44,116 nt of DNA from a virus: the IMG/VR virus record IMGVR_UViG_3300045988_010956, one strand, 5' to 3'. The notes under the pieces were generated by a model that was not told where the DNA came from, made no database searches, and worked only from the letters and a program-made list of their open reading frames with translations. The stretch's first letter is position 1, and each line of letters starts with the position of its first letter. This document shows positions 1,434 through 44,116 of the stretch, piece after piece. The position numbers and the translations under genes are program-made.

Positions 1434-1622
1434 TTAATCACCTGAATTAGCTGATTTCAGCACATTTCTGATAAACTCTATGTCTTTATTGAAATTCTTT
1501 ATATCTTCGTTCTGTATCTCTACTGGTTTATCATTCCACAATTCTCTTCCGGCTCTTTGCCCTTGGAAGAATTGGAATTTGTCCAGAATTTCCAAACATT
1601 TAAATATTTCTTTGCTATTCAT
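1434..1622 (-). CDS. Hypothetical small protein between terminase and portal
   Basis: 62 aa starting MNSKEIFKCLEILDKFQFFQGQRAGRELW. Its ATG at 1620..1622 overlaps the terminase stop (TAATG). The track ORF extends to 1649, inside the terminase gene. Confidence 0.6.
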   Translation of the reverse strand: MNSKEIFKCLEILDKFQFFQGQRAGRELWNDKPVEIQNEDIKNFNKDIEFIRNVLKSANSGD

Positions 1623-19509: not shown

Positions 19510-19520
19510 ATGATAAAAAA

Positions 19521-19555
19521 AACCGGCTCTCGCTACCAACGAGGACCGGTTTTTA
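19521..19555 (+). terminator. Rho-independent terminator
   Basis: AACCGGCTCTCG-CTACCAA-CGAGGACCGGTT followed by TTTT. Confidence 0.6.
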
Positions 19556-19647
19556 AAAATAAGACAATTCCAGAGAAAAATCTTACCTGCACATTAAGTA
19601 TATCATCTCCGGGATTGCCATACAAGTGTAAAAAGGAGAATGATAAA

Positions 19648-21222
19648 ATGAATGAATCAGTATGCATCTATTTGAGGAAATCCAGAGCCGACCGGGAAGC
19701 TGAGGCGCATGGGGAGGGTGAAACTCTTGCCAGACACGAACATATCTTGCTGGACCTTGCAAAAAGACAAGGCTATAGCATTGGTGCCATCTACAGAGAA
19801 GTGGTTTCCGGCGAAACAATCTCCGCGCGTCCAGTCATGCAAAAACTTCTCCACGAAGTAGAATCCGGGCTGTGGGACGGTGTTCTGGTTGTCGAAGTAG
19901 AACGTCTTGCCAGAGGTGACACTATCGACCAAGGCGTTGTGTCCAGAGCTTTTCAGTACTCTGACACGAAGATTATCACTCCTACAAAAATATACGATCC
20001 AAACAATGAATTTGACGAAGAGTATTTTGAGTTTGGACTTTTTATGAGCCGTAGAGAGTATAAGACCATCAAGCGTCGATTGAATAATGGTAGAATCTCA
20101 TCCGTAAAAGAAGGTAAATACTGTGGCAACAAGCCACCTTACGGATACGAAAGAGTAAAACTCGAAAAAGAAAAAGGTTATACCCTCAGACCCGTTCCAG
20201 CTCAAGCCGAGATCGTAAAGATGATTTACACTTGGTATGCCGGTGATGGCTGCGAGCAAATTGGGGTTGCGAAGATTGTGCGAAAATTAAATGAAATGGG
20301 AATAGAGTCTGCACTAGGCGGTGACTGGACTCCTGCTAGTATACAGGGAATTCTAACAAATCCGGTATACATCGGGAAAATACGATGGAACGGGAGAAAA
20401 ACAGTAAAGGCTATACAGAACGGACAAGTGGTCAAGACGCGTCCACGATCTAAGGATGTCCTTATCTGCGAAGGATTACATCCGGCTATTATATCAGACG
20501 ATCTGTATAATTCTGTGCAAGAGATACGTCAAAAGAATCCGTATCGTCCGATCAGCATAAAAAACACAGTTCGCAATCCGCTTGCCGGAATTGTCTATTG
20601 CAATAAATGTGGGCGAGCTATGGTCCGACGCCCTTATCAAAAACGTGGGCAGGAAGATACTCTCATGTGTCCATATACGTCTTGCTCTACAGTGAGCAGC
20701 AAATTATCTCTAGTTGAAAAAGCTGTGATTGATGGAATTAGGGAGATTGCGGAGGAATATAAGTTAAACAATGATATTAATGTTCCGTCTAACACTATTG
20801 ATTCCGGTATAACATCCAAACAAAATCTTATACGCGAAAAAGAAAGTGAGCTGGAAAGCTTAAATTCCCAAAAAGCAAAACAATATGATCTGCTTGAGCA
20901 AGGAATCTACACCACAGAAGTCTTCCTTGAACGATCCAAAACTATATCCGCATCTATACAATCATGCTCTGATACTATTGCGAACTTGAGAGAAGAAATC
21001 GAACACGATGAGAATATTAAGGCACAACAGTCGGATTTTGTTCCACGTTGCGAAGAATTACTTAATAACTATTGGAACCTTAACATGGAATCACGAAATA
21101 GAATGCTCAAGAGTCTGGTTGAAAAAGTCGTCTACTCAAAAAACATTAAAAATACTTACGGCAAAGGTAATGAAATCAATTTTGAGCTAGACATTTTCCC
21201 AAAAATTCAAAAAAATGATTAA
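19648..21222 (+). CDS. int: Large serine recombinase (integrase)
   Basis: The start MNESVCIYLRKSRADREAE has RBS AAGGAG. It has a resolvase catalytic Ser motif, VVEVERLARGD, a recombinase domain, a zinc-ribbon region CNKCGRAM...CPYTSC and a coiled coil. The track ORF start at 19510 reads through the terminator. Confidence 0.85.
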   Translation: MNESVCIYLRKSRADREAEAHGEGETLARHEHILLDLAKRQGYSIGAIYREVVSGETISARPVMQKLLHEVESGLWDGVLVVEVERLARGDTIDQGVVSRAFQYSDTKIITPTKIYDPNNEFDEEYFEFGLFMSRREYKTIKRRLNNGRISSVKEGKYCGNKPPYGYERVKLEKEKGYTLRPVPAQAEIVKMIYTWYAGDGCEQIGVAKIVRKLNEMGIESALGGDWTPASIQGILTNPVYIGKIRWNGRKTVKAIQNGQVVKTRPRSKDVLICEGLHPAIISDDLYNSVQEIRQKNPYRPISIKNTVRNPLAGIVYCNKCGRAMVRRPYQKRGQEDTLMCPYTSCSTVSSKLSLVEKAVIDGIREIAEEYKLNNDINVPSNTIDSGITSKQNLIREKESELESLNSQKAKQYDLLEQGIYTTEVFLERSKTISASIQSCSDTIANLREEIEHDENIKAQQSDFVPRCEELLNNYWNLNMESRNRMLKSLVEKVVYSKNIKNTYGKGNEINFELDIFPKIQKND

Positions 21223-21312: not shown

Positions 21313-22986
21313 TTATACTTTTTTAATGTATTTGGAAGATACGAAACCATAGTATTTATTTTTCATTCTAATGTAGTACCATGGAGTTCCATCTTTTGCT
21401 TTCTGAGTATAGTTCATGACTTCGATCGGAGCACCATATTTCAGATATGGAATCTTCTTGAGTGTCGGATATTCTTTTCCGGCCCAAGTACGTACATACA
21501 AAGTAGGCTTTGCTGTAACCTGTCCGTCAAAGAGCTTCTGTGTCTTATCCTGTTTATTGGTGATTACTGTTGCAGTTGCATTTTCTGTTCCATCAACCTT
21601 AAGATATTTGGTAGCAGCCCAACCAACGCCAATGTTGGCAACTTTGACTTTCGTCCACATTCCAGACTTTTCACCATTGATTTCAACACGATTGCCTTTA
21701 TTGATCTGTCCGAGAACATATCCGTTCGGTGTCTCGCGGATGTACAGGTCGTCAACCGTGGATGTTGCTGTGCCTGTTGCTTTCCATGTTTCTGCGACAG
21801 TTTTCTCTTCTCCCCAGTCAATCCAAACATAACCATCGATTGCCGGATCGCTGCGAAGATAGCGTTTATTTCGGCAGGATCCGCCGTTTGCAATGACTCC
21901 TGCTGCACTTGAAGTGTTTCCTTCGTTGGTGTAGATGTACGTATTGCTATAAGAGCGGACAGATCCGATGTGAGAGCCATCACGGAAGATAACAAGTGCT
22001 CCGTCTTTTGGTGTGCTGTGCCATGTTCCATTGGATTTAGCGTGGTTTGTAACACTCTTGCAGTTGTAGAATCCACCACCCATGATCTGCAATGCTTTTG
22101 TAATACCTAAGACTTTCGCCAACTTCCAGAACTGATACTCTGCGCACCAAGGTTGTGCCTGACACCCCGGTTGCCCCCAGGAATTTACGTCACGGGCAAA
22201 TTTGGTGTAATTGTTATATCCGGCATTTTTCTGGAAATCATCAAGATAAGCGTTTGTGCGTTTTTCCAGATACGGTTTATTGCCGCCATTGTTTGCGTAA
22301 TAATCACCGAGTTCTGTGAATTTTTGTAATTTTGTTTTCGTCACTGGTGTTGCCTCCTTTTTTGCATATACCCGAATCATCTCGATGACTTTCTTCTGTC
22401 TCGTCGTGTAATCACCGACCTGATTCGGTCTCGGGTCTGCTGGATCTGTACACAATGCTGCATAAATGGTTTCTGAAGTATAAGGCTTTTTGACCTTACT
22501 CAGGATCCTCTGTAATGCAGATGCGCCGCCCTGATGAATAATGTTGATGCATTCCATCATGGCATCGTCCGGCATGGTTCCGTATTTCTTCGTGATACTT
22601 TCAGAATATTCGGCAATCTGTTCTTCCATCAGCTCATCCTGACATTTGATGCCGAGATCGGAACTGATGATAGAAATGATACATTTTGCTTTTGCGGATG
22701 ACGGGGAAATCGCATAGGTAGACCAGTTCTTTTTCAACAGGTCGGATTCAAGCCCCTGAGTGTCCATTTTTTTGAATAGTGCCGGATTTCCTCTCTGTAT
22801 TTTCTGCAAGAGCCGTTTGGCTTCGCCTGCATACCACTGACCAGCTCCGATAGTGATTGCTTTTTCGTTCGGAGTGTTTGCACCGGCACCAATGAACGCA
22901 TTGTAACGTTGTTTTCCATATACCTGTCCACCGGTTTCAACCGCATACAGGATTTTTCTGAGTACTGCGATATTTTCTTTGAGCAT
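21313..22986 (-). CDS. Endolysin: N-terminal lysozyme-like(?) domain + CHAP + two SH3-like domains
   Basis: 557 aa. The CHAP-like motif is GQPGCQAQPWCAEYQFW...DGALVIFRDGSHIGSV. The SH3-like motifs are LYIRETPNGYVLGQINKGNRVEINGE and LYVRTWAGKEYP...PWYYIRM. It is the last gene of the late operon. Confidence 0.75.
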   Translation of the reverse strand: MLKENIAVLRKILYAVETGGQVYGKQRYNAFIGAGANTPNEKAITIGAGQWYAGEAKRLLQKIQRGNPALFKKMDTQGLESDLLKKNWSTYAISPSSAKAKCIISIISSDLGIKCQDELMEEQIAEYSESITKKYGTMPDDAMMECINIIHQGGASALQRILSKVKKPYTSETIYAALCTDPADPRPNQVGDYTTRQKKVIEMIRVYAKKEATPVTKTKLQKFTELGDYYANNGGNKPYLEKRTNAYLDDFQKNAGYNNYTKFARDVNSWGQPGCQAQPWCAEYQFWKLAKVLGITKALQIMGGGFYNCKSVTNHAKSNGTWHSTPKDGALVIFRDGSHIGSVRSYSNTYIYTNEGNTSSAAGVIANGGSCRNKRYLRSDPAIDGYVWIDWGEEKTVAETWKATGTATSTVDDLYIRETPNGYVLGQINKGNRVEINGEKSGMWTKVKVANIGVGWAATKYLKVDGTENATATVITNKQDKTQKLFDGQVTAKPTLYVRTWAGKEYPTLKKIPYLKYGAPIEVMNYTQKAKDGTPWYYIRMKNKYYGFVSSKYIKKV

Positions 22987-33018: not shown

Positions 33019-33291
33019 TTATTCTTTCTGCGCTGTCTGCTTAATAATCTGATTCACACCAGTAGCCGACAATCCGTTAAACATACCGACCGCAACTGCC
33101 GTGATATAATCCGTTGCCGGAAAATCCGGGATAACTCCCATCCCGACTGCTCCGAGAACACCACCAATAACCGCCATGATTACTGGAATCCATTCATCAG
33201 AGATTCCTTTTGATGCTTTGCAGCCCATTCCTACGATGTAGCAGATCATAACGATTGCTATACATGAGCCTAATGTTGAAATGTCCATCAT
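33019..33291 (-). CDS. Holin (phi LC3 / LL-H-like family)
   Basis: 90 aa. TM segments are LGSCIAIVMICYIVGMGC and WIPVIMAVIGGVLGAVGMGVI. The C-terminus ITAVAVGMFNGLSATGVNQIIKQ is typical of this holin family. Confidence 0.65.
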   Translation of the reverse strand: MMDISTLGSCIAIVMICYIVGMGCKASKGISDEWIPVIMAVIGGVLGAVGMGVIPDFPATDYITAVAVGMFNGLSATGVNQIIKQTAQKE

Positions 33292-33584
33292 TCAGATACC
33301 TCCTCATAAGTTTTTTCAAAAATATTTGGTTTACACGGATATAATTCTCCGTTTACACCCTGGATAACATAATCACCAATAGATACATGATGATTGCCTT
33401 CCAGAGTTTTGATATACAATTCTGGAATATCAGATGGTTTCGTCCTTGGAATAATATAATACATTGTTCCTTCTTTAAAGGCTTTTACTGCCCAGTCCGG
33501 CACATAATACTCGCCGTCCCTATCTTTCAAATCGCCATCATACTGAAATGCTTCAATTACAACTGGTTTCTTTCTAAATTTCAT
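33288..33584 (-). CDS. Hypothetical small phage protein
   Basis: 98 aa; the pattern MKFRKKPVVIEAFQYDG...GDYVIQGVNGELYPCKPNIFEKTYE recurs in small phage proteins. Confidence 0.55.
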   Translation of the reverse strand: MKFRKKPVVIEAFQYDGDLKDRDGEYYVPDWAVKAFKEGTMYYIIPRTKPSDIPELYIKTLEGNHHVSIGDYVIQGVNGELYPCKPNIFEKTYEEVSE

Positions 33585-33601: not shown

Positions 33602-33955
33602 TTACATCAAATCATATTCGTTGAACACTTTAAAAATCTTCGGTGACTGAATAGCAAACCAGTCGACCATTTCTTCGTTCACAGCCCAACTGTCAGCACT
33701 GTTCGAATTGGAATCAAGTCCAGATTCAAGCAGAAATGCATGAATGATTTCGTGTCTAACAACCTGTTTCTGATAGCTTTCAAGGTCTGCTTTTGCTCCA
33801 ATCTGTCCCTGTGATGCCTCCATATCATCAACCACAATTTCCCGTGTTGATAAATCAGTATATCCATCTACATTTGTCAGATTCGGATATTCTTTCTCGT
33901 TCCCGAACTTCACGCTCCATTCAGAGCCTAAGATATTAACCTTGAAATCCTGCAT
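33602..33955 (-). CDS. Putative zinc metallopeptidase (HExxH)
   Basis: Contains VVRHEIIHAFLLESG. The ATG at 33955 (MQDFKVNILG) overlaps the connector gene 3' end; the track start is 33976. Confidence 0.5.
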   Translation of the reverse strand: MQDFKVNILGSEWSVKFGNEKEYPNLTNVDGYTDLSTREIVVDDMEASQGQIGAKADLESYQKQVVRHEIIHAFLLESGLDSNSNSADSWAVNEEMVDWFAIQSPKIFKVFNEYDLM

Positions 33956-34436
33956 ATAAAATCGGTATCCCTTCATTCGTTCTTACTCCCATCAGAAGCG
34001 GTAAAGCTGCCTTAAGAAGTAAGTCGTTCGTTTTCTGTACGTCCCCGGCGGCGGCATACACAGCGCTCCATTCCTTTGCGCTTGCTCCAATCTGCTGAGG
34101 AGTTGCGTAAGAGATGGATTCGCTGCCGGATGATACAGAGGTTACAATGCCTGTTGAGATGTTCCCGACATTTATGTCGGTTACATTTGCCGATGCCTGA
34201 TTGATAGCATTCTTTTCAGCAAGCTCAATCTGATACATTAATTCAGCCAGTGAGCAGACCGCCTTTTTGATACGCTTCTGTGAGCGTTCATTTTCTGGCA
34301 GTCCATCCACCAGTCTGTCAAACGTCATTGTGTCCACAAAATCACTGGCTCTTTCTGCCAGTCGTGGAAAGTCGGCTTCTGGCACAACTGAACCGAAATA
34401 TGAAGTTGTGTAAAATTCATAATCTGCATAAGCCAT
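33936..34436 (-). CDS. Head-tail connector (gp6-like)
   Basis: The N-terminus MAYADYEFYTTSYFGSVVPEADFPRLAERASDFVD is typical of this family. It lies directly after the capsid gene. Confidence 0.65.
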   Translation of the reverse strand: MAYADYEFYTTSYFGSVVPEADFPRLAERASDFVDTMTFDRLVDGLPENERSQKRIKKAVCSLAELMYQIELAEKNAINQASANVTDINVGNISTGIVTSVSSGSESISYATPQQIGASAKEWSAVYAAAGDVQKTNDLLLKAALPLLMGVRTNEGIPILYAGFQG

Positions 34437-34457: not shown

Positions 34458-35624
34458 TCATTTTGCTGTTACAGTCGCGTGTCCTGCACTCAGTGCCTTA
34501 TAGGTGCTGTCACACTCAACTACCGTGATAACCTGCCCTGTTGTTGCGGTAATGTCAGATTCGCCATCCCACGCGCTCCAGTTCTTCACATTCTGTCCGT
34601 AGTCTACGGCAGTCTCAGAAGATGCAACTTTGTACTTGTACACATTGTTAGCGTTTTCTTTAGCCGGGTTTACAGTGATTTTTGTATCACCAGTTGCTGT
34701 TCCTGCCGCAGATGTTACTGTCAGAGTGCCAAGCGTTGGTGTCTCATCAATGGTAATTACTGCGATTGCATCAATGTACTCCGCAAAAAGAGTCAGTCCC
34801 ATAACTGCGAACGCTTCGGAAACTGCTGTGTGGTAGTTGCCCTGAGTGTGGAATCCGATCAGGTTTGTCTCGCCAGATACGGTGTATACAAGCCCTGCTC
34901 TTGCGAAGTCAGATTCGTTCGGGTCAACATAATACAGAACGATGTTCTCGACAGGTGTTGCAATAACCTGTCCTCTCGGGATTTCGCTGTCAGACAGTAA
35001 AAAGATTGTGTTGAATCCCATAAAGTCTTTCATGTACTGGAATCCGAACTGGTTCTGAATAGTAATTTCAGCTGCTCCGAGGTATTCATATACGTCCAGA
35101 ATGTTGACAAATCCAGCGACGCCAGTCACATTTCTGTGCATCTGCTTGAATTTGTTCTCAACACGACCCTTAGCCATTGCCAGAGCCATCTGGAATGTAG
35201 TTTCTGTGGAAGTAAGTGTACCGGTTTTCAGATAGTCATAGAATCTTCCGGTAACATCAGTCTGAAGCTGGAAAAGGAACTCATCGTCAGTCATCTGAAC
35301 AGCGTTCTCATAACCGTGATCCTTGATTGCTTCGATAGATACAGCCTTTGCGTACTTTTCGATAGTCATTTCCGCATAGTCTTTTTCTTTCACAACGAAT
35401 TTGCTATAAGGGATTTCCTCACCCTCTGCCACTTTTCCGCTCTGCAAAGTACCCTCTGCGTATTTAGACTTGAGTACAGCACCCGGCTGCTTTTTGATAG
35501 GTCTCATGATACCCAGAATCTCACGCAAGTGTTCCCAGTTTCTTTCGAATCTGGTTACAAAGTCAATCTCACGTGCTGCTACCTGGACATCATCTGTCAT
35601 AATAAGATTAGCTTTTGCTGCCAT
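34458..35624 (-). CDS. Major capsid protein with a C-terminal Ig-like extension
   Basis: 388 aa; follows the scaffold gene; C-terminus TLTVTSAAGTATGDTKITVNPA...TVVECDS. Confidence 0.8.
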   Translation of the reverse strand: MAAKANLIMTDDVQVAAREIDFVTRFERNWEHLREILGIMRPIKKQPGAVLKSKYAEGTLQSGKVAEGEEIPYSKFVVKEKDYAEMTIEKYAKAVSIEAIKDHGYENAVQMTDDEFLFQLQTDVTGRFYDYLKTGTLTSTETTFQMALAMAKGRVENKFKQMHRNVTGVAGFVNILDVYEYLGAAEITIQNQFGFQYMKDFMGFNTIFLLSDSEIPRGQVIATPVENIVLYYVDPNESDFARAGLVYTVSGETNLIGFHTQGNYHTAVSEAFAVMGLTLFAEYIDAIAVITIDETPTLGTLTVTSAAGTATGDTKITVNPAKENANNVYKYKVASSETAVDYGQNVKNWSAWDGESDITATTGQVITVVECDSTYKALSAGHATVTAK

Positions 35625-35705: not shown

Positions 35706-36347
35706 TCACTGGAATAACTGGATGTTCTGAGCGATCGCCGCCTGTCTTTCGGACGGGTCTTTGATTGCTTCGATATCTTTCTTTGTCATGTTTCCCGGTG
35801 TCTGCTGATGTCCAATCCGCGCTGTTGCAAATCTCGCCTGTTGCTGCTGGGCCTGCTGCTGACTTTCATCTACAAATGTATCAGGTTCATCCTGTTTCAT
35901 CTGTTCAAGCAGATCATTAAGTCCAAGAATCTTTCCGTCCTTAAGCTTAAGACCAGCTGATTTGATATCAGCGGTAACAGATCTTTTAGCTGCTGGAGAT
36001 GAAAAATTAACATTTTCCAATGCAGTTTTAAGAGCATCGTCAAAATCTCTTTCGTAGATCTTCGCATTGAATTCTTTCTCTGCGTCCTCCGCTTTTTTCT
36101 TCCATCCAGCAAGCTCTGTCTGAATGTTCGCCGGGTCGATACCGTCAAAACCTTTCAGAGTCTCTTCTGCTGTCTCGGCACGTTCTTTCCAGTCATCACG
36201 TTCTCCCTCGACTTTTGACAGAGTTTTCGCTACTTCTTTGGCATTTTTATAATGCTCAGAGAGCGCTTTCTTGATATCTGCCTGCTTGTCTTCCGGGATT
36301 TCAATTCCAAATGATTTTAATGTGTCAATAAGTTTCTGCATATACAT
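35706..36347 (-). CDS. Scaffolding protein (DUF4355-like)
   Basis: 213 aa; highly charged coiled coil; starts MQKLIDTLKSFGIEIPEDKQADIKKALSEHY. Confidence 0.75.
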   Translation of the reverse strand: MYMQKLIDTLKSFGIEIPEDKQADIKKALSEHYKNAKEVAKTLSKVEGERDDWKERAETAEETLKGFDGIDPANIQTELAGWKKKAEDAEKEFNAKIYERDFDDALKTALENVNFSSPAAKRSVTADIKSAGLKLKDGKILGLNDLLEQMKQDEPDTFVDESQQQAQQQQARFATARIGHQQTPGNMTKKDIEAIKDPSERQAAIAQNIQLFQ

Positions 36348-36419: not shown

Positions 36420-36492
36420 CTGGAATAACAGGAATCGAACCTGTGACGCTCTGATTAACAGTCAGATGCTCTACCAACTGAGCTATATCCCA
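36420..36492 (-). tRNA. tRNA-Asn (anticodon GUU)
   Basis: Manual cloverleaf fold. Acceptor UGGGAUA/UAUUCCA (one G-U pair). D arm GCUC-AGUUGGUA-GAGC. Anticodon arm UCUGA-CUGUUAA-UCAGA. T arm ACAGG-UUCGAUU-CCUGU. U1:A72 and discriminator G73, as in bacterial tRNA-Asn. No encoded CCA. Confidence 0.9.
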
Positions 36493-36870: not shown

Positions 36871-37425
36871 TTAGAGCATATCCCGGAGTTTTTCCACGTA
36901 TCTTTTAACAAGATCGCGTTCCTCCCGGCACTCTGCGTCCTTGGACATATCACTCATTTCTGTAGTAAGCTCGTCAAGATGTTCTTCCAGAGCGGCAAGC
37001 ATCTTTCTTTTACAGTCTTCAGACTTGCCGGAACGATAGCTTTGCTTCTGCGTCATGTAATCGTCATAAGCATCCCGTCCATCAGAGCGACTGTAATGCC
37101 CTCTGACATAATGTTCACCACGTCTGGCATAAGAATTGCCCCTGTCGTAATCTGGCATCATTCTGCCATCATTTGCGCTGTATCTCCCCATGCTGTCACG
37201 TTTTCTTCCACGTTCGCTGTAATCGTCATTGTAGCCACCACGCATCTCATCAAGGACAGCGTTATAGTACTCCACTTTCTTATCCCAGTACTGTGTGTTC
37301 TTGATATCTTTGTACATATCAATCAGTTTGTATGTCACTTCCAGAGTTCCAGTGGTTAATCCATTATCAGCGATTTTGGACAGTTCGTCTTCGATTCTTG
37401 CGCATAAGTCTTTAATATCTCTCAT
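36871..37425 (-). CDS. Hypothetical protein with an R/D/Y/G-rich low-complexity centre
   Basis: The start MRDIKDLCARIEDEL has RBS GGAGG. The centre is RGGYNDDYSERGRKRDSMGRYSANDGRMMPDYDRGNSYARRGEHYVRGHYSRSDGRDAYDDY, flanked by helical ends. Confidence 0.65.
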   Translation of the reverse strand: MRDIKDLCARIEDELSKIADNGLTTGTLEVTYKLIDMYKDIKNTQYWDKKVEYYNAVLDEMRGGYNDDYSERGRKRDSMGRYSANDGRMMPDYDRGNSYARRGEHYVRGHYSRSDGRDAYDDYMTQKQSYRSGKSEDCKRKMLAALEEHLDELTTEMSDMSKDAECREERDLVKRYVEKLRDML

Positions 37426-37436
37426 AATCATACCTC

Positions 37437-37859
37437 CTACGCTTCTCTGGTTACGACAATATTTGCGTTCGCAACAGAAACAGCCTGATCGCTTGTGTTC
37501 TCTACTGCAATATTAACGCAACATCCGCGAGGTACATCAATATAAATACCAGAGGATACATTGTTGTACTGATCTACTGCCGCCGGTGTGGAAATCATCT
37601 GAGAAGAAAGAACCGGTTCACCAGAGATTGCAATAGCCAGGGAAATGGCTCCGACAGTACCGCCTGTTGGAATTGCGATATTGCCAGAGAAATCCACGAA
37701 GAATCTTGCTTTGCACTGATTTGTCAGTCCTCTCAGCGTAATAATTCCGCTTCCCTCTCTGTGCTGAATACAGTTAGAACCTTTAACTGCTGTATTTGAA
37801 AATACTACGTTTCCATTTGCTGCTACAGTCTGAGCAGCCACATTTGTAAATTCTGCCAT
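37437..37859 (-). CDS. TNF/C1q-like jelly-roll protein resembling exosporium BclA-C-terminal/BxpB-type domains (tentative)
   Basis: 140 aa. The strand pattern ...VVFSNTAVKGSN...GIITLRG...ARFFVDFSGNIA...ISLAIAISGEPV...IAVENTSDQAVSVANANIVVTREA resembles those domains. RBS AAAGGAG. Confidence 0.4.
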   Translation of the reverse strand: MAEFTNVAAQTVAANGNVVFSNTAVKGSNCIQHREGSGIITLRGLTNQCKARFFVDFSGNIAIPTGGTVGAISLAIAISGEPVLSSQMISTPAAVDQYNNVSSGIYIDVPRGCCVNIAVENTSDQAVSVANANIVVTREA

Positions 37860-37881
37860 AAAAATACTCCTTTCATATCAC

Positions 37882-37906
37882 AAAAGGACAGGTTTCAGCC
37901 TGCCCC
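37882..37906 (-). terminator. Rho-independent terminator inside the cargo island
   Basis: Minus-strand RNA GGGGCAGG-CUGAAA-CCUGUCC followed by UUUUGUG. Confidence 0.55.
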
Positions 37907-37970
37907 TCTGTGTAATACGGCATAAGCCGACATCCGAAATCAATCGAAAGATACTCTCGATATGAAGTTA

Positions 37971-38747
37971 TCAGCAATTGCATCCGGTGTTACATCCACA
38001 TCCGTAATATGTGTTCGGGTTAGGAACCTGATATGCCGGGATCGGTGCCGGATTGATTGCATTGATTAATCGCTGCGCCTGTGCATTCATTTCAGTTGTA
38101 ATCAGTGCGGACTGGCGATCCTGAGATGCAGCACGCTTCAGATCAGAATTTTCTGCTTGTAATGTTGCAATCTTGTCCTGAGTCAGGAAGTCAAGAATGG
38201 CGCGAGTATTGTTGTTCTGATTTTCCAGAATATCTCTGGTGTTGTTGTTCATTGTGTTCTGAAGAGCACAAGTGCTGGTAGCTAAATTGTAGTTGATGCC
38301 CTGTATAGCTTCTCTTGTTTCACAGCAACACTGAGCTAACTGAGACTGCAATGCGTTTGTGTTCTGCATATTAGCCACTGTATCAGCGTTAATAGCCTGA
38401 TGAATGCCAAAGCCAGTCTGCATGATGTTGGTGTTAATTCCGTTAAAACCGGTAAGCATACCGTTGTTCACTGCGTAGAATCCATCACAGAGACCGTTGT
38501 TGATTCCGTCAAGCTTGCTGATTACTGCGGAATTGTCAAATCCTCTCTGAATATCTGCCTGAGTAGCTGCTGTAGCTGTGTATCCACCGCCGTTGCCGTT
38601 ATTGCCCCAGCCATTGTTTCCCCATCCGCAGAGTGTGAAGATAAATAAAAAGATAAGCGGCCAAATACCATCTCCGCCAAACATTCCATCATTCCTGTTG
38701 TTCCCAGTTAAAAGAGCAACATCTGATGCTGTTAAATTTCCATCCAT
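37971..38747 (-). CDS. Asn/Gly/Gln/Cys-rich membrane-anchored protein of unknown family
   Basis: 258 aa. TM segment IWPLIFLFIFTLCGWG. Also contains GWGNNGWGNNGNGGG, the tandem repeat NNNTRDILEN/NNNTRAILDF, CCC at mid-protein and the C-terminus YYGCGCNTGCNC. RBS AAGGAG. Confidence 0.7.
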   Translation of the reverse strand: MDGNLTASDVALLTGNNRNDGMFGGDGIWPLIFLFIFTLCGWGNNGWGNNGNGGGYTATAATQADIQRGFDNSAVISKLDGINNGLCDGFYAVNNGMLTGFNGINTNIMQTGFGIHQAINADTVANMQNTNALQSQLAQCCCETREAIQGINYNLATSTCALQNTMNNNTRDILENQNNNTRAILDFLTQDKIATLQAENSDLKRAASQDRQSALITTEMNAQAQRLINAINPAPIPAYQVPNPNTYYGCGCNTGCNC

Positions 38748-38777
38748 AGTTATAATCTCCTTTTTGTGTATTTACAT

Positions 38778-38793
38778 CAATCTGGCCAGATTG
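38778..38793. promoter_or_regulatory. Perfect 16-bp palindrome CAATCTGGCCAGATTG upstream of the Asn-rich gene
   Basis: Seen directly in the sequence, in the 53-nt intergenic spacer. Confidence 0.4.
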
Positions 38794-38800
38794 TAATGTA

Positions 38801-39022
38801 CTATTTCATATTCTTCAGCAGATTCTGAAACTGTCTTGCCATCTGTTGGACCTGATTAAGCTGTTGCTGAGAAATCTGTCCAGACTGTAATATTTTCTCA
38901 ACTTCTGCTTTCGGGTCTCCCTTAAAATTCTGTTTAAACTGCATAAACTGTTGTATCATCTGCATTGGTCCGTTCCCCTGTGGCATCCCACCACCGAGGG
39001 CATTAAATAATGAATTACTCAT
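38801..39022 (-). CDS. Gln-rich small protein
   Basis: MSNSLFNALGGGMPQGNGPMQMIQQFMQFKQNF...QQLNQVQQMARQFQNLLKNMK. RBS GGAGG, 8 nt before the ATG at 39022. Confidence 0.6.
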   Translation of the reverse strand: MSNSLFNALGGGMPQGNGPMQMIQQFMQFKQNFKGDPKAEVEKILQSGQISQQQLNQVQQMARQFQNLLKNMK

Positions 39023-39485
39023 TTGCATTTCCTCCATTGACTGCTGATTCCTGTACGGTATTAGCTCTAACAGGTTCAGAAAAAGAATTTAATCGGTTTA
39101 TGATAGCTTCGTATTTGCCCTTTAAATCGTCATATTCATGTCTAGTGACGTATTTACTGTCCATGTTCTGAACAGGCTGTTTAGGCGGCATCTGAGTGCC
39201 TACCTCGTGGTATTCAAATGTCCGCAGTGGCTGTGGCATGCCGGAAACATCTGTGGATTTTATGTAGAACTTTTCACTTTCACTATCCATCAGCAAAACG
39301 CTCGTCCCGGGTGCTACCAGATAGGATTTCGCGCCGACTTCGCCGGATACCCACAGAATACCGCTATTATTTTGCTGTGGTTGCTGTACTGGTTGAGTTG
39401 GAATCTGGACAGGCTGTTGCTGGAACTGATTCATCTGTCCCGGAACGCCAAAACTATATTGATAAGGATTGTTATATAATGCCAT
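39015..39485 (-). CDS. Gln/Pro-rich N-terminus plus small beta-rich core, unknown family
   Basis: The start MALYNNPYQYSFGVPGQMNQFQQQPVQIPTQPVQQPQQNN has RBS AAAGGTGG. The core is ILWVSGEVGAKSYLVAPGTSVLLMDSESEKFYIKSTD. Confidence 0.6.
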   Translation of the reverse strand: MALYNNPYQYSFGVPGQMNQFQQQPVQIPTQPVQQPQQNNSGILWVSGEVGAKSYLVAPGTSVLLMDSESEKFYIKSTDVSGMPQPLRTFEYHEVGTQMPPKQPVQNMDSKYVTRHEYDDLKGKYEAIINRLNSFSEPVRANTVQESAVNGGNANE

Positions 39486-39519
39486 CTTATGCACCACCTT
39501 TCTGATTATATTTTTGCAT

Positions 39520-39553
39520 AAAAAAAGAACCGGAAACAGGTCGTTTCTGGCTC
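39520..39553 (-). terminator. Rho-independent terminator after the small HTH gene
   Basis: Minus-strand RNA GAGCCAGAAACG-ACC-UGUUUCCGGUUC followed by UUUUUUU. Confidence 0.65.
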
Positions 39554-39573
39554 TAATTAGTATCCAAAAAGTA

Positions 39574-39774
39574 TCAGCACACTTTGATTATTTTATTATT
39601 TACCCGGCGACTCAACCGTTTCGCCGTGGATATGCTCACGTTCATCTGTTCAGCGCAGTATTCAAGCGTGTGTTCCTGACATCTCAGCCGGAACAATCTT
39701 TCTTCATCCGGTGTAAAATTACACTCTGTCAAGAACCTATCTATATCTTTCTTAGTGAATACATATAACTTCAT
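39574..39774 (-). CDS. Small sigma-70 region-4-like HTH protein
   Basis: 66 aa. FTPDEERLFRLRCQEHTLEYCAEQMNVSISTAKRLSRRVNNKI has the layout of a region-4/LuxR-type HTH. Confidence 0.55.
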   Translation of the reverse strand: MKLYVFTKKDIDRFLTECNFTPDEERLFRLRCQEHTLEYCAEQMNVSISTAKRLSRRVNNKIIKVC

Positions 39775-39797
39775 GAGCATACCCCTTATTAATGCAA

Positions 39798-40103
39798 TTA
39801 ACGTTGATTCTGTGCAAGATAATTTGTAAGTTTCTGTTTTGTTTTTTTTAATTCTTCTACATTATTCCCACTAATCTGACTGTCCAGCATGGTTGATAAC
39901 ACTTCCAGAATTAATGAATCACGCTCTGCAATCCTCCGAAGACTTTCATAATCTCGCCTATCATGTTCTTCCAGTGTCTCTACTCGCTTGTTGAGTCGAA
40001 ATGCCGGAGTAATCCACTTAAAGATTACAGCCGCTGCCCCTCCGACAATGGACACCCCTCCGCAAAACGAGAGGAAAATCTGTACAAATTCTGATATGCT
40101 CAT
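39798..40103 (-). CDS. N-terminally membrane-anchored coiled-coil protein
   Basis: 101 aa; TM segment FVQIFLSFCGGVSIVGGAAAVIF; RBS AAAGGAG. Confidence 0.6.
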   Translation of the reverse strand: MSISEFVQIFLSFCGGVSIVGGAAAVIFKWITPAFRLNKRVETLEEHDRRDYESLRRIAERDSLILEVLSTMLDSQISGNNVEELKKTKQKLTNYLAQNQR

Positions 40104-40107
40104 TTAG

Positions 40108-40488
40108 CTACTCCTTTTCCCAGTAATATACCGGGATCTCATTACCGCTATCCCATGTATCGAAATATTTGCCCTCTTGTACTGTCACCACATGACCATC
40201 TATGCAGAGGATATACGTACCTGTCGGATGGTCTGTGCAAAAATCATTGACTGTATAGATATACCGTTCTGACTGCTCAATCAGTTTGCGCCTGTACCCG
40301 TGTTTGTAGAGGTACGCTCCCCAAACGTAATTAGCTGATGGCATATCTGACAGAGCGCATGCCTGTATCATTAATCCGGCAAATACTGTTTCCCAGTCGA
40401 AGCCGGTTGCTTTACATATTGCCCGGACAGCACAATCTCCGACTCGATTCCCAGCAGGATTCGGGTTGTAATACTTCCATCTATCCAT
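40108..40488 (-). CDS. Papain-fold cysteine-peptidase-like protein coupled to the MuF gene
   Basis: 126 aa. YNPNPAGNRVGDCAVRAICKA holds the candidate catalytic Cys, and ILCIDGHVVTV the candidate His. The start overlaps the MuF stop. Confidence 0.45.
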   Translation of the reverse strand: MDRWKYYNPNPAGNRVGDCAVRAICKATGFDWETVFAGLMIQACALSDMPSANYVWGAYLYKHGYRRKLIEQSERYIYTVNDFCTDHPTGTYILCIDGHVVTVQEGKYFDTWDSGNEIPVYYWEKE

Positions 40489-41774
40489 CAGTCAATCCCC
40501 TTTGCTGTTTTATATCTCTTTGCCGCTCCTCTGGCTTTTGCGGCGTTCTGGCGATTCCACTTAGCAATCATGAGCCGGTCTTTCAGTTCCCTCAGATCGT
40601 TCTGCTTGCAGTAAGCCTTGTATGCAGCATTTTGTTTCTGCAAAAGATAAGACTTCCGGTCAAGGTCTTGTTGTAATGCGAATTTCGCCTTTTCGTTCGG
40701 TGCATTGTCAACTCCTGCTTGTAGTCCAAGAACCTCTCTCTTTGTTTTGCGAATTCTCCGCTCATAAGTACGTTGTCGTTGTTCTTTTTCGTACTGTTTA
40801 CCTTTGTTGGCTTTGTCCTGTGCTGATAATCCTGCATAAGGATTCGGCATTCCTTCCACCCAAACTGAAAAATGATGTCTGCAATTTACTCCACATATTC
40901 CATCGGCTTCGCCATAATGACAGTTTTCAATAAAATCTGGATATTGACTTGCTTTTTGTTCCGACATTCTACGATATTCTGGCGTATCTCGTTCCCGAAA
41001 AAACTCCGGCTTGATTTCTTTTAATTTTTCCCAGTCTATGGAAAATACCTGTCCTTGCCATACTTCATGGCTTGGGCGGCTTCCTATATGTGCCGATGTC
41101 AGTACTAGACCGTATCCCATTTCTTTCATTCTTGTCAACTGAATATCGGCACACGCCTGAGCCACGCCAGTTCTAACAGAACGTGCTACTGCTGTTTCAA
41201 TCGTGTCTTTTCTGCCAGATGGATACGTGACAGTAACGCCATCACTCACAACGTTATTAACCGCCTCTTTGATGGCTTGCGTATACCCAACCGCTCCAGT
41301 CATTACATGATTATATGCAAGGTCGCATTGCTCGATATAGAGCCTCTGAGCGGTACTTGCGGTGGTTCGTGTGAAGTTCTTCCACTCGCCCATAGTCGTA
41401 AGCATATTTCGCTCCATGAGCCTTATCATAGCTGGCGACTGTTCTAATGGGACTGGACTGAGTCCTGCCGCCTTATATACCTTATCATCATAGTTCATTG
41501 CAGTGATTCCGGCATCTTCAAACGCTTCAAGAAGTTCCTGCTGTTCACGTTTGGTGTATTTGGATAATTCTGCCAGAATGTCTTCTAATAGTTCACCAGA
41601 TTCTTGTAGTGTTCTGATTCTCCACGCATCGGCGTTGGTCAGGATATAATCCTCACCTCTGCCAATTCTTGCCATCATTCTTGACACGATCTCAGAGATG
41701 ATATACTGATGCAGTTCTTCTGCAATCTGTTCACTGCCCTCTGTTATCCGGCGTAAATATTCTGGACTAAGCAT
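40488..41774 (-). CDS. Minor head / head-morphogenesis protein (SPP1 gp7 / Mu F-like)
   Basis: 428 aa. Contains SAHIGSRPSHEVWQGQVF and CHYGEADGICGVNCRHHF, both typical of the family. The C-terminal tail is a basic coiled coil. Confidence 0.8.
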   Translation of the reverse strand: MLSPEYLRRITEGSEQIAEELHQYIISEIVSRMMARIGRGEDYILTNADAWRIRTLQESGELLEDILAELSKYTKREQQELLEAFEDAGITAMNYDDKVYKAAGLSPVPLEQSPAMIRLMERNMLTTMGEWKNFTRTTASTAQRLYIEQCDLAYNHVMTGAVGYTQAIKEAVNNVVSDGVTVTYPSGRKDTIETAVARSVRTGVAQACADIQLTRMKEMGYGLVLTSAHIGSRPSHEVWQGQVFSIDWEKLKEIKPEFFRERDTPEYRRMSEQKASQYPDFIENCHYGEADGICGVNCRHHFSVWVEGMPNPYAGLSAQDKANKGKQYEKEQRQRTYERRIRKTKREVLGLQAGVDNAPNEKAKFALQQDLDRKSYLLQKQNAAYKAYCKQNDLRELKDRLMIAKWNRQNAAKARGAAKRYKTAKGID

Positions 41775-41813: not shown

Positions 41814-41940
41814 AGTACTCTTCTCCGGTGATCTGCTTATACTGCTCTGGGGTGATTACACCCTTGTCACAAAACTGTCTGATCTGTTTCTTCGTGTACA
41901 GTTTCAGATTGAAAAATCTCCTGATCTTCTCGAACATCAT
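41812..41940 (-). CDS. XkdX-family small protein (42 aa, below the track cutoff)
   Basis: Own translation: MMFEKIRRFFNLKLYTKKQIRQFCDKGVITPEQYKQITGEEY. The ...ITxEQYKxITGEEY ending is the XkdX signature. ATGA overlap with the upstream stop. Confidence 0.65.
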   Translation of the reverse strand: MMFEKIRRFFNLKLYTKKQIRQFCDKGVITPEQYKQITGEEY

Positions 41941-42239
41941 GCTTCCTCGCTTTCTTCAAGTAATGTGTCTGTCATCAGTGCCGTATACATAACCTGTGCC
42001 TCGATACGATCTTGCTGAGTTGGTTGTTCTTCTGGGAGTTCCGTCTGAATCTTCTCCAGTTCGGCAATTTCTTCGGGCGTCATATCTCTGTAGACCATTC
42101 CCATCACTGGTACTTCACGGGTACGGGTCTCTTCATGTTCCTCGGAGATGAGGTTATTTTCTTCGTCGTACTCGGCTGGAACGGTTACTGTGTAGGATTC
42201 TGTACGGGTTCCTGTTTGTTTGTATTCTGCTATTTTCAT
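41937..42239 (-). CDS. Acidic small protein in the XkdW position
   Basis: 100 aa; translationally coupled on both sides. Confidence 0.5.
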   Translation of the reverse strand: MKIAEYKQTGTRTESYTVTVPAEYDEENNLISEEHEETRTREVPVMGMVYRDMTPEEIAELEKIQTELPEEQPTQQDRIEAQVMYTALMTDTLLEESEEA

Positions 42240-43897
42240 CAGTTACCGAGCCTCCTAGAATATATCTTTATATTTGTTCCAACTGGAAATTTTTCTCCAT
42301 TAACAAGGTATATGTTAATCCTATTAATGATACTTATAACATCGGGATTTTTAATGCCATAAGCTTGATGGCGCAGATATTCAGAATTTGTCGCGCTAGC
42401 CGGATTAATTGCTGCGAAAGTATTATTTTCTCCAATCCATAGGCCCCCAATATCCCTCATTTTGCCTATATAATACTTATAATCTTTTGCCATAAATATA
42501 TTATTATATATTTTGTCATTATTAAATGAAATCCATCCGTTTGTATTTTTTGTTGCCGCATTCGGAAGTTCAATGTAAACAATAATATCTTTTTCATTTA
42601 AAGCATTACCATTGTCTTTTTGTGTATACGTAATACTTACTGTTTCTTCTTCCAGTGTGGTACTGATAATTACAGCGTAATCACCAACCCCCATCCTCTC
42701 CCTAGCTGCCGCCTGTTCCTCTGCTATCCATGCAGCACCTTTTCCATCACACATGGCGGCTTTGACGGCGTAGTCAAGAGAGTAGTTAGGCACAATCGGA
42801 CAAAATGAATTATTCCTTGCATCAATGTTTGATTTTGATGCTGCTTGTATTCTGATAAGTCCCGTACTCGCATCAGCTTTTACAATGCCACCTCTTGTCA
42901 CATATTTATCTATAGTTACTAATCCTGCCTTTTCTGTTTTCGTAGCAAGCGGTATCTCCGCCACACCATCTTGCACGATACTCTCACCATTAATCTGGAC
43001 GTCTAAGTTGCTTCCACCATCATCCGCCCACTCGCAGACGAATGTGCCGTCTTCGTTGACGGACTTGATTTTGAGGATTTTACCAACTTCGGGAGTTGGG
43101 GGAGAATCAAGAAATCCGCTGTCATTTTCTAGCTCAGATGTCTTTGTTGGAATCTTTGTATTATCTGGTAATGCACCAACTTCTTCCGCAGTATATGTCG
43201 GTTTTTCTGGTTGTTTCGCCCAGTCTGGAACTGTTGGGTCGGTCTCTTCAAACGGGTGTTCTTGCATATACGCGCCGACAGCTTCTTTGATTTCTTCCGT
43301 AGACGCACCGCCTGTCATGTCCTTCGCTTCGAAATCTGTCGGTTTGCCGTCTGTACCGACTTCTTTTACTGCTATTACCTGTCCAACCTTTGCGGACTGC
43401 GGTCGAGTGATTTTCTCTGACAGGTCAAGATTCAGATTGTCACGTATTTGCTCCGTATCTTTCGCTGCTTTTTCTGCCCGATCAGCCGCGTTATTGACCG
43501 CTGTAACCGTTTCATGGAAAATATTCGGTTCCGGTGCTGGATCTACGCTTGGATTCTCTGGCTTTGGTCGACTGTACACCGGAATAGTAATTCTGTACTC
43601 TGTATTGCCGGATTCCTCATCAGCCACATATATGAATGCATAGATGGAAAAATCACCAGACTTTCCATTGTTTTTCAGTAATTCGTCTGGAATCTTAACA
43701 GTTGTCACGCCATCCATTGTTGTTCCAACTCTTGACAGTGTGCTTCCGCCTCTTATATCGAGGCTAAAATGTACCTCCGTAGCTGTTGGAAGATTCTGTC
43801 CCGTGATGCTCAATATCTGACCGTAGTCGTATTGCCAGATTTTACGGGTTGTCACGAATCTATAATCTAATTGTACTGGTATGATATTAGTGTCCAT
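42239..43897 (-). CDS. Tail-fibre-like protein (BppU-N-like N-terminus)
   Basis: The start MDTNIIPVQLDYRFVTTRKIWQYDYGQILSITGQNLP has RBS GGAGAGGAG. It contains the fibre-type motif TKTSELENDSGFL and an AT-rich C-terminal domain. The track ORF starts at 43963. Confidence 0.6.
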   Translation of the reverse strand: MDTNIIPVQLDYRFVTTRKIWQYDYGQILSITGQNLPTATEVHFSLDIRGGSTLSRVGTTMDGVTTVKIPDELLKNNGKSGDFSIYAFIYVADEESGNTEYRITIPVYSRPKPENPSVDPAPEPNIFHETVTAVNNAADRAEKAAKDTEQIRDNLNLDLSEKITRPQSAKVGQVIAVKEVGTDGKPTDFEAKDMTGGASTEEIKEAVGAYMQEHPFEETDPTVPDWAKQPEKPTYTAEEVGALPDNTKIPTKTSELENDSGFLDSPPTPEVGKILKIKSVNEDGTFVCEWADDGGSNLDVQINGESIVQDGVAEIPLATKTEKAGLVTIDKYVTRGGIVKADASTGLIRIQAASKSNIDARNNSFCPIVPNYSLDYAVKAAMCDGKGAAWIAEEQAAARERMGVGDYAVIISTTLEEETVSITYTQKDNGNALNEKDIIVYIELPNAATKNTNGWISFNNDKIYNNIFMAKDYKYYIGKMRDIGGLWIGENNTFAAINPASATNSEYLRHQAYGIKNPDVISIINRINIYLVNGEKFPVGTNIKIYSRRLGN

Positions 43898-43962
43898 CTT
43901 ACTCCTCTCCGAATAATGTTGGTTCGTCTGGCTAAGCTTCTTTAACCATTGTTCTAATCTCA

Positions 43963-44116
43963 TTACTCTTCTTCAAAAAAATCTCTCGTTTTGTTTTCCT
44001 CTTTGGCTTCTTGTGAAATTTTTTTTGCTTCCTCTTCGGTATATCCATAAAATTTCATCAAATAACGCCAAAATGCTACATGCCCGGAATTTACATAACT
44101 GTACCACGTCATCCTG
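43963..44116 (-). CDS. Portal protein C-terminal end (continuation of 1..1397 across the junction)
   Basis: In the same frame across the 99-bp overlap: ...FYGYTEEEAKKISQEAKEENKTRDFFEEE, then TAA at 43963..43965. Confidence 0.8.
   Translation of the reverse strand, partial: RMTWYSYVNSGHVAFWRYLMKFYGYTEEEAKKISQEAKEENKTRDFFEEE
44018..44116. repeat. Terminal direct repeat, copy 2
   Basis: Identical to 1..99. Confidence 0.95.

Follow-up and report, generated by a model that had tools for sequence, protein, structure and literature searches.

The 44,116-nt virus record IMGVR_UViG_3300045988_010956 (here called the window) carries an island of small genes, at positions 36871 to 40103, between the genes for a MuF-like minor head protein and a head scaffolding protein. 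We found that the island genes A to E, together with the adjacent 126-aa gene P, make up a conserved collinear gene set, P-A-B-C-D-E, which occupies variable positions in other phages and is missing from relatives with the same capsid module. P is a predicted papain-like enzyme, A and B are Gln-rich proteins, C is a putative membrane protein, D is a predicted TNF/C1q-type jelly roll, and E is rich in Arg, Asp, and Tyr. Judged from gene content, the set often travels with F, which resembles sigma-70 region 4, and in the window it also carries the predicted membrane protein G. We favor the view that a phage accessory cassette, P-A-B-C-D-E, which is horizontally mobile, has been inserted in the head operon and that its products would form a non-virion, membrane-anchored assembly. 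As a general model, this explanation has in our judgment slightly less than an even chance of being right. Its mobile-accessory part is very probable, and the details of the assembly are tentative and rather doubtful.

Homologous loci were collected by tblastn against GenBank phages, by a scan of IMG/VR, and by a one-genome-per-species scan, followed by iterated hidden Markov model (HMM) searches with each protein. The species-level scan gave 178 hits, corresponding to 80 loci in which D was 42 to 81% identical to the window protein. All six families were present in 51 of these 80 loci, and P-A-B-C-D-E was collinear in 79; the A, B, and E families were detected in 69, 56, and 73 loci, respectively. 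The IMG/VR scan returned at least 600 candidate stretches, and 591 were confirmed as D relatives. In the lineage of the window, the island is fixed: the full order was present in 64 of 80 IMG/VR loci, and most of the remaining loci end at contig ends. Median identities to the window were 82 to 99% for the island proteins and 91% for the capsid protein. Among these close relatives, C was the most variable cassette protein (median, 82%), and the median for D was 99%. In the protein collection, at least 7962 homologues of D were found.

P was contiguous with A to E also in loci without MuF. Since it travels with A to E in other phages, the 126-aa gene, which the original prediction had assigned to MuF, is the first gene of the conserved cassette. 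Homologous MuF and scaffold genes flank the cassette in just 6 of the 80 loci. Elsewhere, the upstream neighbors are holins and NlpC/P60 (with PG_binding) or GH25-like lysins, and most loci lie after lysis genes. Downstream, we found an opposite-strand integrase (12 loci), a ~109-aa family (24 loci), a phrog_1233 HExxH protein (11 loci), or a dUTPase (8 loci). The cassette lies between lysin and integrase in Dulem virus 33 and after the integrase, in the replication region, in Dulem virus 39. Butyrivibrio phage Ceridwen has the complete cassette after its lysin (order G, lysin, f?, P, A, B, C, D, x, E, H), and in Clostridium perfringens phage XP41-N3, genes for A, a B-like protein, and C stand between antirepressor and Gam/Erf genes. 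Furthermore, prophage-like regions in the genomes of at least 80 species of gut bacteria contain the cassette, at other genome positions. Lachnospiraceae, Oscillospiraceae, and other gut Clostridia are the hosts of most carrier phages, most host names being those of metagenome-assembled genome (MAG) bins.

Dulem virus 35, with a capsid protein 84% identical to that of the window, has the cassette at the same MuF-scaffold junction. The more distant capsid-family relatives Streptococcus phage Taco (35% identity) and faecal contig MT837048 (43%), both retrieved with the capsid protein as query, have MuF, one small open reading frame (ORF), and scaffold, with no island, and the cassette HMMs found no match in MT837048. 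The shifting genome position and the absence from same-capsid relatives argue for mobile cargo rather than a core head accessory. This is in line with the original prediction, which saw the island as cargo inside the head module and proposed comparing its presence in related phages; as it is not conserved in every same-capsid relative, and as the same genes stand elsewhere in other phages, its proteins are not ordinary head accessories. Furthermore, five of the seven island ORFs matched PHROG families of unknown function (E, 6e-25 to 2e-63), showing that they are real genes and not chance ORFs. The view that unrelated ORFans and decaying sequence have merely gathered in a permissive intergenic site, for which the low-complexity proteins without annotated families might speak, has next to no probability. 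Judging by conservation, it is already contradicted: 79 of the 80 diverse loci keep the gene order, there are thousands of homologues, invariant residues are kept across homologues at 40 to 60% identity, and P and D have high-confidence predicted folds.

The cassette is similar to morons or lysogenic conversion cassettes at the lysis-integrase junction: it is present or absent in relatives, varies in location, and has terminator-like hairpins and a probable small regulator. Likewise, it lies mostly after lysis genes and is next to the integrase in 12 loci. Unlike morons, it comprises six co-inherited genes in strict order, is embedded in the head operon in the lineage of the window, and shares C with virulent crAss-like phages. 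We classify it as a moron-type accessory cassette made of divergent versions of known folds. Its six families are catalogued only as PHROGs of unknown function, and no description of the cassette was found in the literature on Bacteroides uniformis phage C3_41T2LP, on RAGATH-21, on BclA with prophage, or on TNF-like with bacteriophage. The cassette is among the more widespread unexplained gene sets of human-gut phages, and knowledge of its role could uncover a new means by which temperate gut phages change the host envelope or what becomes of an infected cell. Carriers in culture are Ceridwen (whole cassette), XP41-N3 (A, B-like, and C), and C3_41T2LP (C family).

D (37437 to 37859, minus strand; phrog_20016, 2e-61) is a 140-aa protein that was modeled as a stand-alone jelly roll of the TNF/C1q type. 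Its AlphaFold2 (AF2) model, for which 70 diverse homologues were used as input, had a predicted local distance difference test (pLDDT) score of 95.0. Foldseek analysis of this model against the PDB revealed 110 matches at E ≤ 1e-3, with a probability of 1.0 for the exosporium matches. The best match was the C-terminal domain (CTD) of F-BclA (9h38; E, 8e-8; template modeling [TM] score, 0.72 to 0.77), followed by BxpB (8d02), BclA-CTD (1wck), and ExsFA (7r1m); this top group had E values of 8e-8 to 8e-6 and TM scores of 0.68 to 0.77. Further matches were the TNF ligand EDA-A1 and C1q. The structure prediction thus bore out the proposed likeness to BclA-CTD and BxpB and confirmed D, at the level of the model, as a TNF/C1q jelly roll closest in fold to Bacillus exosporium proteins. 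The size of D is also near that of the stand-alone ExsFA/BxpB chains (148 to 156 residues in the PDB).

D differs from ExsF and BclA in that it is phage encoded, has an invariant cysteine trio (C49, C113, and C114), shares 10 to 14% identity with the exosporium structures in structural alignments, and is present in the phage of a non-spore-former. No Pfam family was matched at E ≤ 1, NCBIfam gave no match, and a PDB sequence-profile search gave nothing relevant. The sequence consists of the domain only: no collagen GXX repeats, exosporium leader, or signal peptide were visible, and the lack of the first two sets D apart from BclA.

C (37971 to 38747, minus strand; phrog_16490, 2e-57) is a predicted 258-aa membrane protein. 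Hydrophobic membrane-type segments were detected by KD19 hydropathy in C and G only among the island proteins, and the value for C was 1.72 at residues 22 to 40. The N-terminal part of C has a G(M/F)FGGDG.WW motif, a Trp-flanked hydrophobic helix, and a Gly-rich linker. The rest is a long N/Q-rich helical region with an invariant QCCC motif, followed by ASQ.AQ, P.P.PAY, and a C-terminal Cys tail of the GCGC type. A single-sequence search with C retrieved 1741 clusters at 50% identity (E ≤ 1e-3).

The three remaining proteins are of low complexity. A (39015 to 39497, minus strand; likely start, 39485; ~156 aa; phrog_21718, 1e-38) has an N-terminal tail rich in Q, P, and Y, followed by a conserved core rich in beta structure (WV.GE.GAK.Y.V....V.L.DSE) and by a C-terminal helix; a K-rich C-terminal tail is frequent among its homologues, and many pair a Gln-rich N terminus with a Lys-rich tail. 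B (38801 to 39037, minus strand; likely start, 39022; ~73 aa; phrog_22984, 6e-25) is Q/M-rich and helical, and as read from the sequence, its start overlaps the stop codon of A. E (36871 to 37431, minus strand; likely start, 37425; ~184 aa; phrog_28802, 2e-63) has helical N- and C-terminal segments around a low-complexity region rich in R, D, Y, G, and S, with the conserved motif HYVRGHYSR. As had been predicted from the sequence, the composition of the island proteins is biased toward Gln, Asn, Gly, Cys, and Tyr. The measured biases are large: against a background of 3.7% Q, 5.5% N, 0.9% C, and 4.3% Y, we counted 10.6% Q and 8.1% P in A; 21.8% Q and 11.5% M in B; 15.1% N, 10.5% G, and 3.9% C in C; and 10.8% R, 12.9% D, and 8.6% Y in E. 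A, B, and E had no Pfam match, and Pfam searches with the individual members of diverse A and E sequences were empty too. More generally, searches of Pfam, NCBIfam, and PADLOC with P, A, B, C, D, E, and G yielded no above-threshold match; PDB sequence-profile searches with D, P, C, A, and E gave chance-level matches only; and eight island proteins plus two neighbors had no match to PADLOC defense models at E ≤ 0.01. A double-glycine leader in B and C was considered and dropped, GG being present in ~13 of 22 diverse B sequences and the spacing in C being off the class II leader consensus.

P (40108 to 40488, minus strand; phrog_3754, 2e-35) has a candidate papain-like triad, Cys19-His99-Asp110. 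Across 62 homologues, C19 and D110 were invariant, and H99 was at least 90% conserved. One P homologue (P0154) is encoded by a prophage of Enterocloster clostridioformis 90A6. In the AF2 model (pLDDT, 93.2), C19 is at the N terminus of a helix that begins with this residue, and H99 and D110 are on successive strands (99 to 104 and 107 to 110). This arrangement is shared with papain-like peptidases, such as the C39 bacteriocin-processing domain and Josephin, and with transglutaminases. Unlike the papain-like peptidases, P has only 126 aa and no Pfam match, and Foldseek found no PDB match at E ≤ 1e-3 (best, Josephin-2; TM score, 0.48; probability, 0.33). Against BFVD, 22 uncharacterised phage proteins were matched at E ≤ 1e-3, with weaker matches to a C39-domain protein (6e-3) and a Josephin domain (0.13); P thus belongs to a phage-wide group of uncharacterised small proteins. 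Our best guess, guided by the model, is that P is a minimal papain-like Cys-His-Asp enzyme.

These features recall spore surface proteins, and the original prediction had proposed that the phage may modify the spore or cell surface of a spore-forming host. A sporulating lysogen would then produce cassette proteins in its mother cell and place them on the spore surface. The best structural matches of D are indeed the exosporium proteins F-BclA, BxpB/ExsFA, and BclA. The Cys-rich C, the Tyr-rich E, and the Gln-rich A and B, together with the triad of P, which is of the papain or transglutaminase type, recall ExsY/CotY, CotG/CotC, GerQ, and Tgl. Besides C and G, the proteins lack a signal-peptide-like hydrophobic N terminus, as expected of coat proteins made in the mother cell cytoplasm, and many carrier genomes are those of Clostridia. 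However, the complete cassette is present in Ceridwen, a phage of Butyrivibrio fibrisolvens, which is a non-spore-former, and C homologues occur in Bacteroides, crAss-like, and predicted archaeal viruses. Furthermore, D has neither collagen stalk nor exosporium leader. The likeness to spore coat and exosporium therefore holds for the fold of D and for composition, but not at the sequence level, where no relation to any coat or exosporium family was detected (Pfam, NCBIfam, and PDB sequences). A role tied to spores is disfavored, and we regard spore mimicry as very improbable.

In the preferred explanation, which is that of a mobile accessory cassette, the products would be non-virion proteins that assemble in the infected or lysogenic cell. 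The single N-terminal helix of C would anchor it in the cytoplasmic membrane, and C would form a long helical stalk with Cys clusters. D may form an ExsF/BclA-like trimer that docks on partner peptides. ExsF-type trimers dock N-terminal leader peptides at subunit interfaces (PMC12357932), and such docking of partner N-terminal peptides by the ExsF/BxpB trimer offers a model of how D might plausibly work. As partners, the Cys-rich C terminus of C and the low-complexity tails of A, B, and E are candidates. P might trim or cross-link the partner proteins of D; speculatively, the Gln-rich N terminus and Lys-rich tail of A would suit an enzyme of the transglutaminase type. The internal terminator between C and D would set different expression levels for the two halves of the cassette, and in the window phage the cassette would be read with the late genes.

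C and D together would mirror the TNF-family ligands, which are type II membrane proteins (EDA-A1 and 4-1BBL) in which a stalk connects the membrane anchor at the N terminus with a trimeric TNF head, and which, like C1q, have the fold of D. In contrast to these ligands, anchor-stalk (C) and head (D) are encoded by separate genes that are split by a terminator, and there is no sequence relation. An ExsF/BclA-like trimer, a Cys-cluster membrane protein, three low-complexity proteins, and a Cys-His-Asp enzyme suggest a self-assembling or cross-linked structure, which is unusual phage cargo. In a bolder version, which we consider quite unlikely, the cassette would be a phage-borne coat-building system: D trimers, the Cys-rich anchor C, prion-like Q-rich A and B, and Arg/Tyr-rich E, produced in the cytoplasm and trimmed or covalently cross-linked by P, would give an exosporium-like layer or a condensate on the host membrane. 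If true, this would be a new class of viral accessory machinery, horizontally shared among phages of gut anaerobes, and in sporulating hosts the product might reach the spore surface.

Several observations weigh against the preferred explanation. The loci were ascertained by searching with D, and therefore the co-occurrence counts are conditional on the presence of D. The enzymatic activity of P rests on three conserved residues, because there was no significant PDB fold match, and the membrane topology of C is ambiguous, because flanking positive charges are missing. A cyanophage tail-fibre domain (8ke9) was among the Foldseek matches of D, and the TNF-like fold serves phage receptor-binding and spike proteins. 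Finally, in the window the cassette is inside the structural operon, and the start of P overlaps the stop codon of MuF; the location and this translational coupling also fit a virion role.

In such a role, C would be a trimeric coiled-coil fibre tipped or capped by a D trimer (a head fibre, decoration, or spike), A, B, and E would serve as chaperones or cement, and P would be a maturation peptidase. Besides the late-strand location between MuF and scaffold, the overlap of P with MuF, and the TNF-like domains in phage fibres, the high conservation of the proteins is consistent with this possibility, as is a crAss-like C homologue that lies among structural and lysis genes and is annotated as "spike protein/viral fiber." We nevertheless consider a virion accessory unlikely, and the capsid decoration or fibre function that had been offered as an alternative to a surface role is disfavored. 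The position is variable and often outside morphogenesis modules (integrase side, replication region of Dulem virus 39, and early region of XP41-N3), and the cassette is common to phages with unrelated head and tail modules. It has a probable regulator of its own and internal terminator-like hairpins, C has a strongly hydrophobic, Trp-flanked helix of the membrane type, and same-capsid relatives assemble without the cassette.

The lysis-proximal end of the late operon is where most other phages have the cassette, and this location suggests a cell envelope role late in infection. Indeed, the frequent adjacency to lysins and holins in phages of both monoderm and diderm hosts hints at such an envelope-related late role. 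C, G, and their partners could then act at the envelope together with holin and endolysin, in lysis timing, envelope disruption, or masking of receptors on debris. Lysins and holins are the commonest upstream neighbors; in Suoliviridae, a holin, a LysB-like gene, and the gene for a sigma/R-D-Y-rich protein precede the C homologue; the G family matches a crAss "lysis regulatory protein/holin"; and in contig L172 the C homologue follows a lysozyme gene and a spanin-like gene. This adjacency is weak evidence, because the end of the late operon is a generic landing site of morons. Moreover, endolysin (21313 to 22986) and holin (33019 to 33291) of the window are 4 to 15 kb away from the cassette, and no cassette protein resembles a known lysis protein (Pfam, PHROG, and NCBIfam). 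Monoderm and diderm hosts are both served, and no known post-holin step is common to both. A function in lysis or egress is thus improbable.

C is also found beyond the cassette. True homologues (HMM E values of 1e-34 to 1e-40) were detected in crAss-like Steigviridae and Suoliviridae and in phage C3_41T2LP, in which C is the only family of the cassette, and others were found in predicted viruses of Methanomassiliicoccales (archaea). The crAss-like genes, annotated as "spike protein/glycoprotein" or "outer capsid protein/viral fiber," share with C the membrane helix, Gly-rich linker, QCCC, PxPAY, and C-terminal CxC tail. These product names are GenBank annotation labels that, we suspect, derive from distant similarity to coiled-coil proteins. 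Suoliviridae have, in this order, a holin gene, a LysB-like gene, a gene for a "sigma/ubiquitin-like" protein whose tail is R/D/Y-rich, the C homologue, and two hypothetical genes, an arrangement reminiscent of G-F-...-C-D-E in the window. The crAss and Bacteroides neighbors of C gave hhalign probabilities of <5% with D, A, E, and P, and Pfam scans of these neighbors gave nothing. Therefore, only C is demonstrably shared, and we do not claim the whole cassette for these phages. L172, in which C follows the lysozyme gene, is a Bacteroides-type contig. Beside the C homologue in L169 (2596 to 3201), L168 (7672 to 7905), and L172 (5112 to 5405), we observed proteins with Arg/Asp/Tyr/Glu-rich tails (for example, ...YGRRREYDREYDERDYEKER... 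and ...EYDRDYDRDYDRED...). They are E-like in composition, with no detectable homology to E, and could be convergent or diverged beyond detection.

The two genes between P and A are less constant than the cassette. G (39798 to 40103, minus strand) encodes a 101-aa protein with a predicted N-terminal transmembrane helix (KD19 maximum of 2.12 at residues 9 to 27) and a coiled coil, and it matched no Pfam or PHROG family. Its family HMM was detected in 9 of the 80 species-level loci, in several of them 1.3 to 4 kb upstream of the cassette. In Ceridwen, a G family member precedes the lysin. In other phages, the family sits beside lysis genes, and its match to the crAss "lysis regulatory protein/holin" had an E value of 3e-5 and an hhalign probability of 71%, via coiled-coil columns. 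From this distribution, G is a lineage-variable, occasional passenger and not part of the cassette core.

F (39574 to 39780, minus strand; likely start, 39774) encodes a 68-aa protein with a putative helix-turn-helix like that of sigma-70 region 4. The resemblance was sub-threshold only: Sigma70_r4 (PF04545) was matched with an E value of 0.007 and 16.2 bits, under the cut-off of 24.1, and TIGR02937 with 2e-4 and 21.1 bits, under the cut-off of 42.9. In addition, F matched phrog_1190, "sigma factor," at 5e-6. Members of the family occur in 24 of the 80 loci, where they usually directly precede P or lie in the P-A interval. F is probably a cassette-associated regulator and, like G, a lineage-variable passenger.

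The prediction had also subdivided the island by two Rho-independent terminators, and both hairpins fold well. The terminator-like hairpin after F (39520 to 39553, minus strand) has a folding free energy of -12.7 kcal/mol (z, -3.3) and is followed by U7; that between C and D (37882 to 37906, minus strand) has -22.6 kcal/mol (z, -5.7). A simple consensus terminator scan listed neither hairpin. Hairpins in the P-to-A interval, mostly upstream of A, are also present in loci L092, L103, L110, and L157. The C-D hairpin with a T-run recurs in 28 of 44 other loci with a C-D gap of at least 30 nt, and no terminator-like hairpins were found in the A-B or D-E gaps. We conclude that an internal terminator or attenuator between C and D is, as far as its recurrence indicates, a conserved feature that would split the cassette into two halves. 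Of the three transcription units that had been proposed, the subdivision by terminators is supported, but the grouping of genes is not, as P has to be counted with the cassette and G and F are passengers that vary between lineages. A promoter scan of the region reported none; visual inspection alone pointed to a TATAAT box, 20 nt upstream of A.

The window represents a complete genome, circularly permuted, of a human-gut siphovirus that is temperate. The portal ORF crosses the window ends (1 to 1600 and 43963 to 44116), with ~33 residues duplicated (RMTWYSYVNSG...EEAKKI), showing a complete circular genome with a terminal assembly overlap of ~100 nt. The closest records are unannotated human-faecal "Bacteriophage sp." contigs (best, 84% query coverage and 87% nucleotide identity). 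The genome encodes a large terminase (1622 to 3244), a primase/helicase (9654 to 11561), a serine integrase (19510 to 21222, plus strand), and the endolysin, followed by the tail genes; the capsid gene is at 34458 to 35624. The insertion is bounded upstream by MuF (40488 to 41774, minus strand; PF06152, 3e-79) and downstream by the scaffold gene (35706 to 36347, minus strand; PF06810, 6e-22). On the minus strand, the order is MuF-P-G-F-hairpin-A-B-C-hairpin-D-E-RAGATH-21-tRNA-Asn-scaffold. As predicted, seven ORFs, a tRNA, and an RNA-like region lie between MuF and scaffold, all on this strand, and the RNA-like region contains a RAGATH-21 match.

The RAGATH-21 RNA (Rfam RF03097; 36664 to 36749, minus strand) is located in the 378-nt spacer between E and scaffold and scored 82.1 bits, compared with a gathering score of 70.3, over model positions 1 to 76. 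It was detected at the equivalent place in Dulem virus 35 (L003, 10008 to 10084) and in L110 (12409 to 12477). RAGATH-21 was rejected as a part of the cassette: in phages of the MuF/scaffold lineage it keeps to the site ahead of the scaffold gene, and L114, the single locus of another context that was scanned, had none. Possibly, the RNA serves the scaffold-capsid mRNA as a leader or as a processing element. RAGATH is not mentioned in the main text of the 2017 structured-RNA paper.

The same spacer contains a tRNA-Asn(GTT) gene (36420 to 36492, minus strand; ARAGORN) and is a "tRNA slot" upstream of scaffold, the occupant of which differs between relatives. It is Tyr(GTA) in the 87%-identical contig MT835739 and Gln, Thr, Gly, and Ile in other relatives (occupants at L001, 1097 to 1188; L157, 11240 to 11313; L158, 10984 to 11059; L159, 11046 to 11119; and L164, 11119 to 11194). 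Four of the six identities (N, Y, Q, and G) correspond to amino acids over-represented in cassette proteins, and AAC makes up 64% of the Asn codons in C compared with 40% in the rest of the genome. A link of the tRNA slot and the AAC bias to the composition of the cassette is suggestive only (post hoc P, ~0.04).

Some side observations concern the cassette in other phages. The ~109-aa family (MLSEHDLLSEIDKYNAKADLTPNEC...; for example, L002, 11350 to 11676) is encoded downstream of E, in the same orientation, in 24 of the 80 loci (L087 to L166) and in Ceridwen. It is not in the window, has no Pfam or PHROG match, and may be a seventh cassette member. In XP41-N3 (L005, 7676 to 8053), the position of D is held by an unrelated 125-aa beta-rich protein with a Cys-rich N terminus (MTCNRRCNCCNRR...); it had no Pfam match, and its classification as Ena-like was unsupported. 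Contig CAVEPP010000001.1 (46.7 kb, binned as Alloprevotella) has two D copies (L093 and L095) 37 kb apart, which points to a concatemer assembly of a circular phage genome of ~37 kb; such MAG host names are therefore not trusted. Assignments of D-bearing MAG contigs to Bacteroidales, Methanobrevibacter, and other taxa were discarded likewise, at least one of the contigs being such a phage-sized concatemer.

Other parts of the structural operon of the window also contain additional genes. Between portal and MuF, a second insertion encodes a 574-aa protein (42239 to 43963, minus strand; phrog_16164, function unknown) and a 100-aa acidic protein (41937 to 42239, minus strand). Both were detected at ≥50% coverage in just 1 of 80 otherwise near-identical loci, and thus the portal-MuF junction is variable too; in Dulem virus 35, this junction holds a 498-aa hypothetical gene. 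The holin gene (phrog_1129, 1e-20), a 98-aa protein gene (33288 to 33584), and the gene for a phrog_1233 HExxH metallopeptidase-like protein (33602 to 33976), all on the minus strand, lie among the head-tail connector genes, ~10 kb from the endolysin gene. Members of the phrog_1233 family and holins are neighbors of the P-A-B-C-D-E cassette in other phages. In the window phage, it looks as if a lysis-proximal accessory region is scattered through the structural operon.

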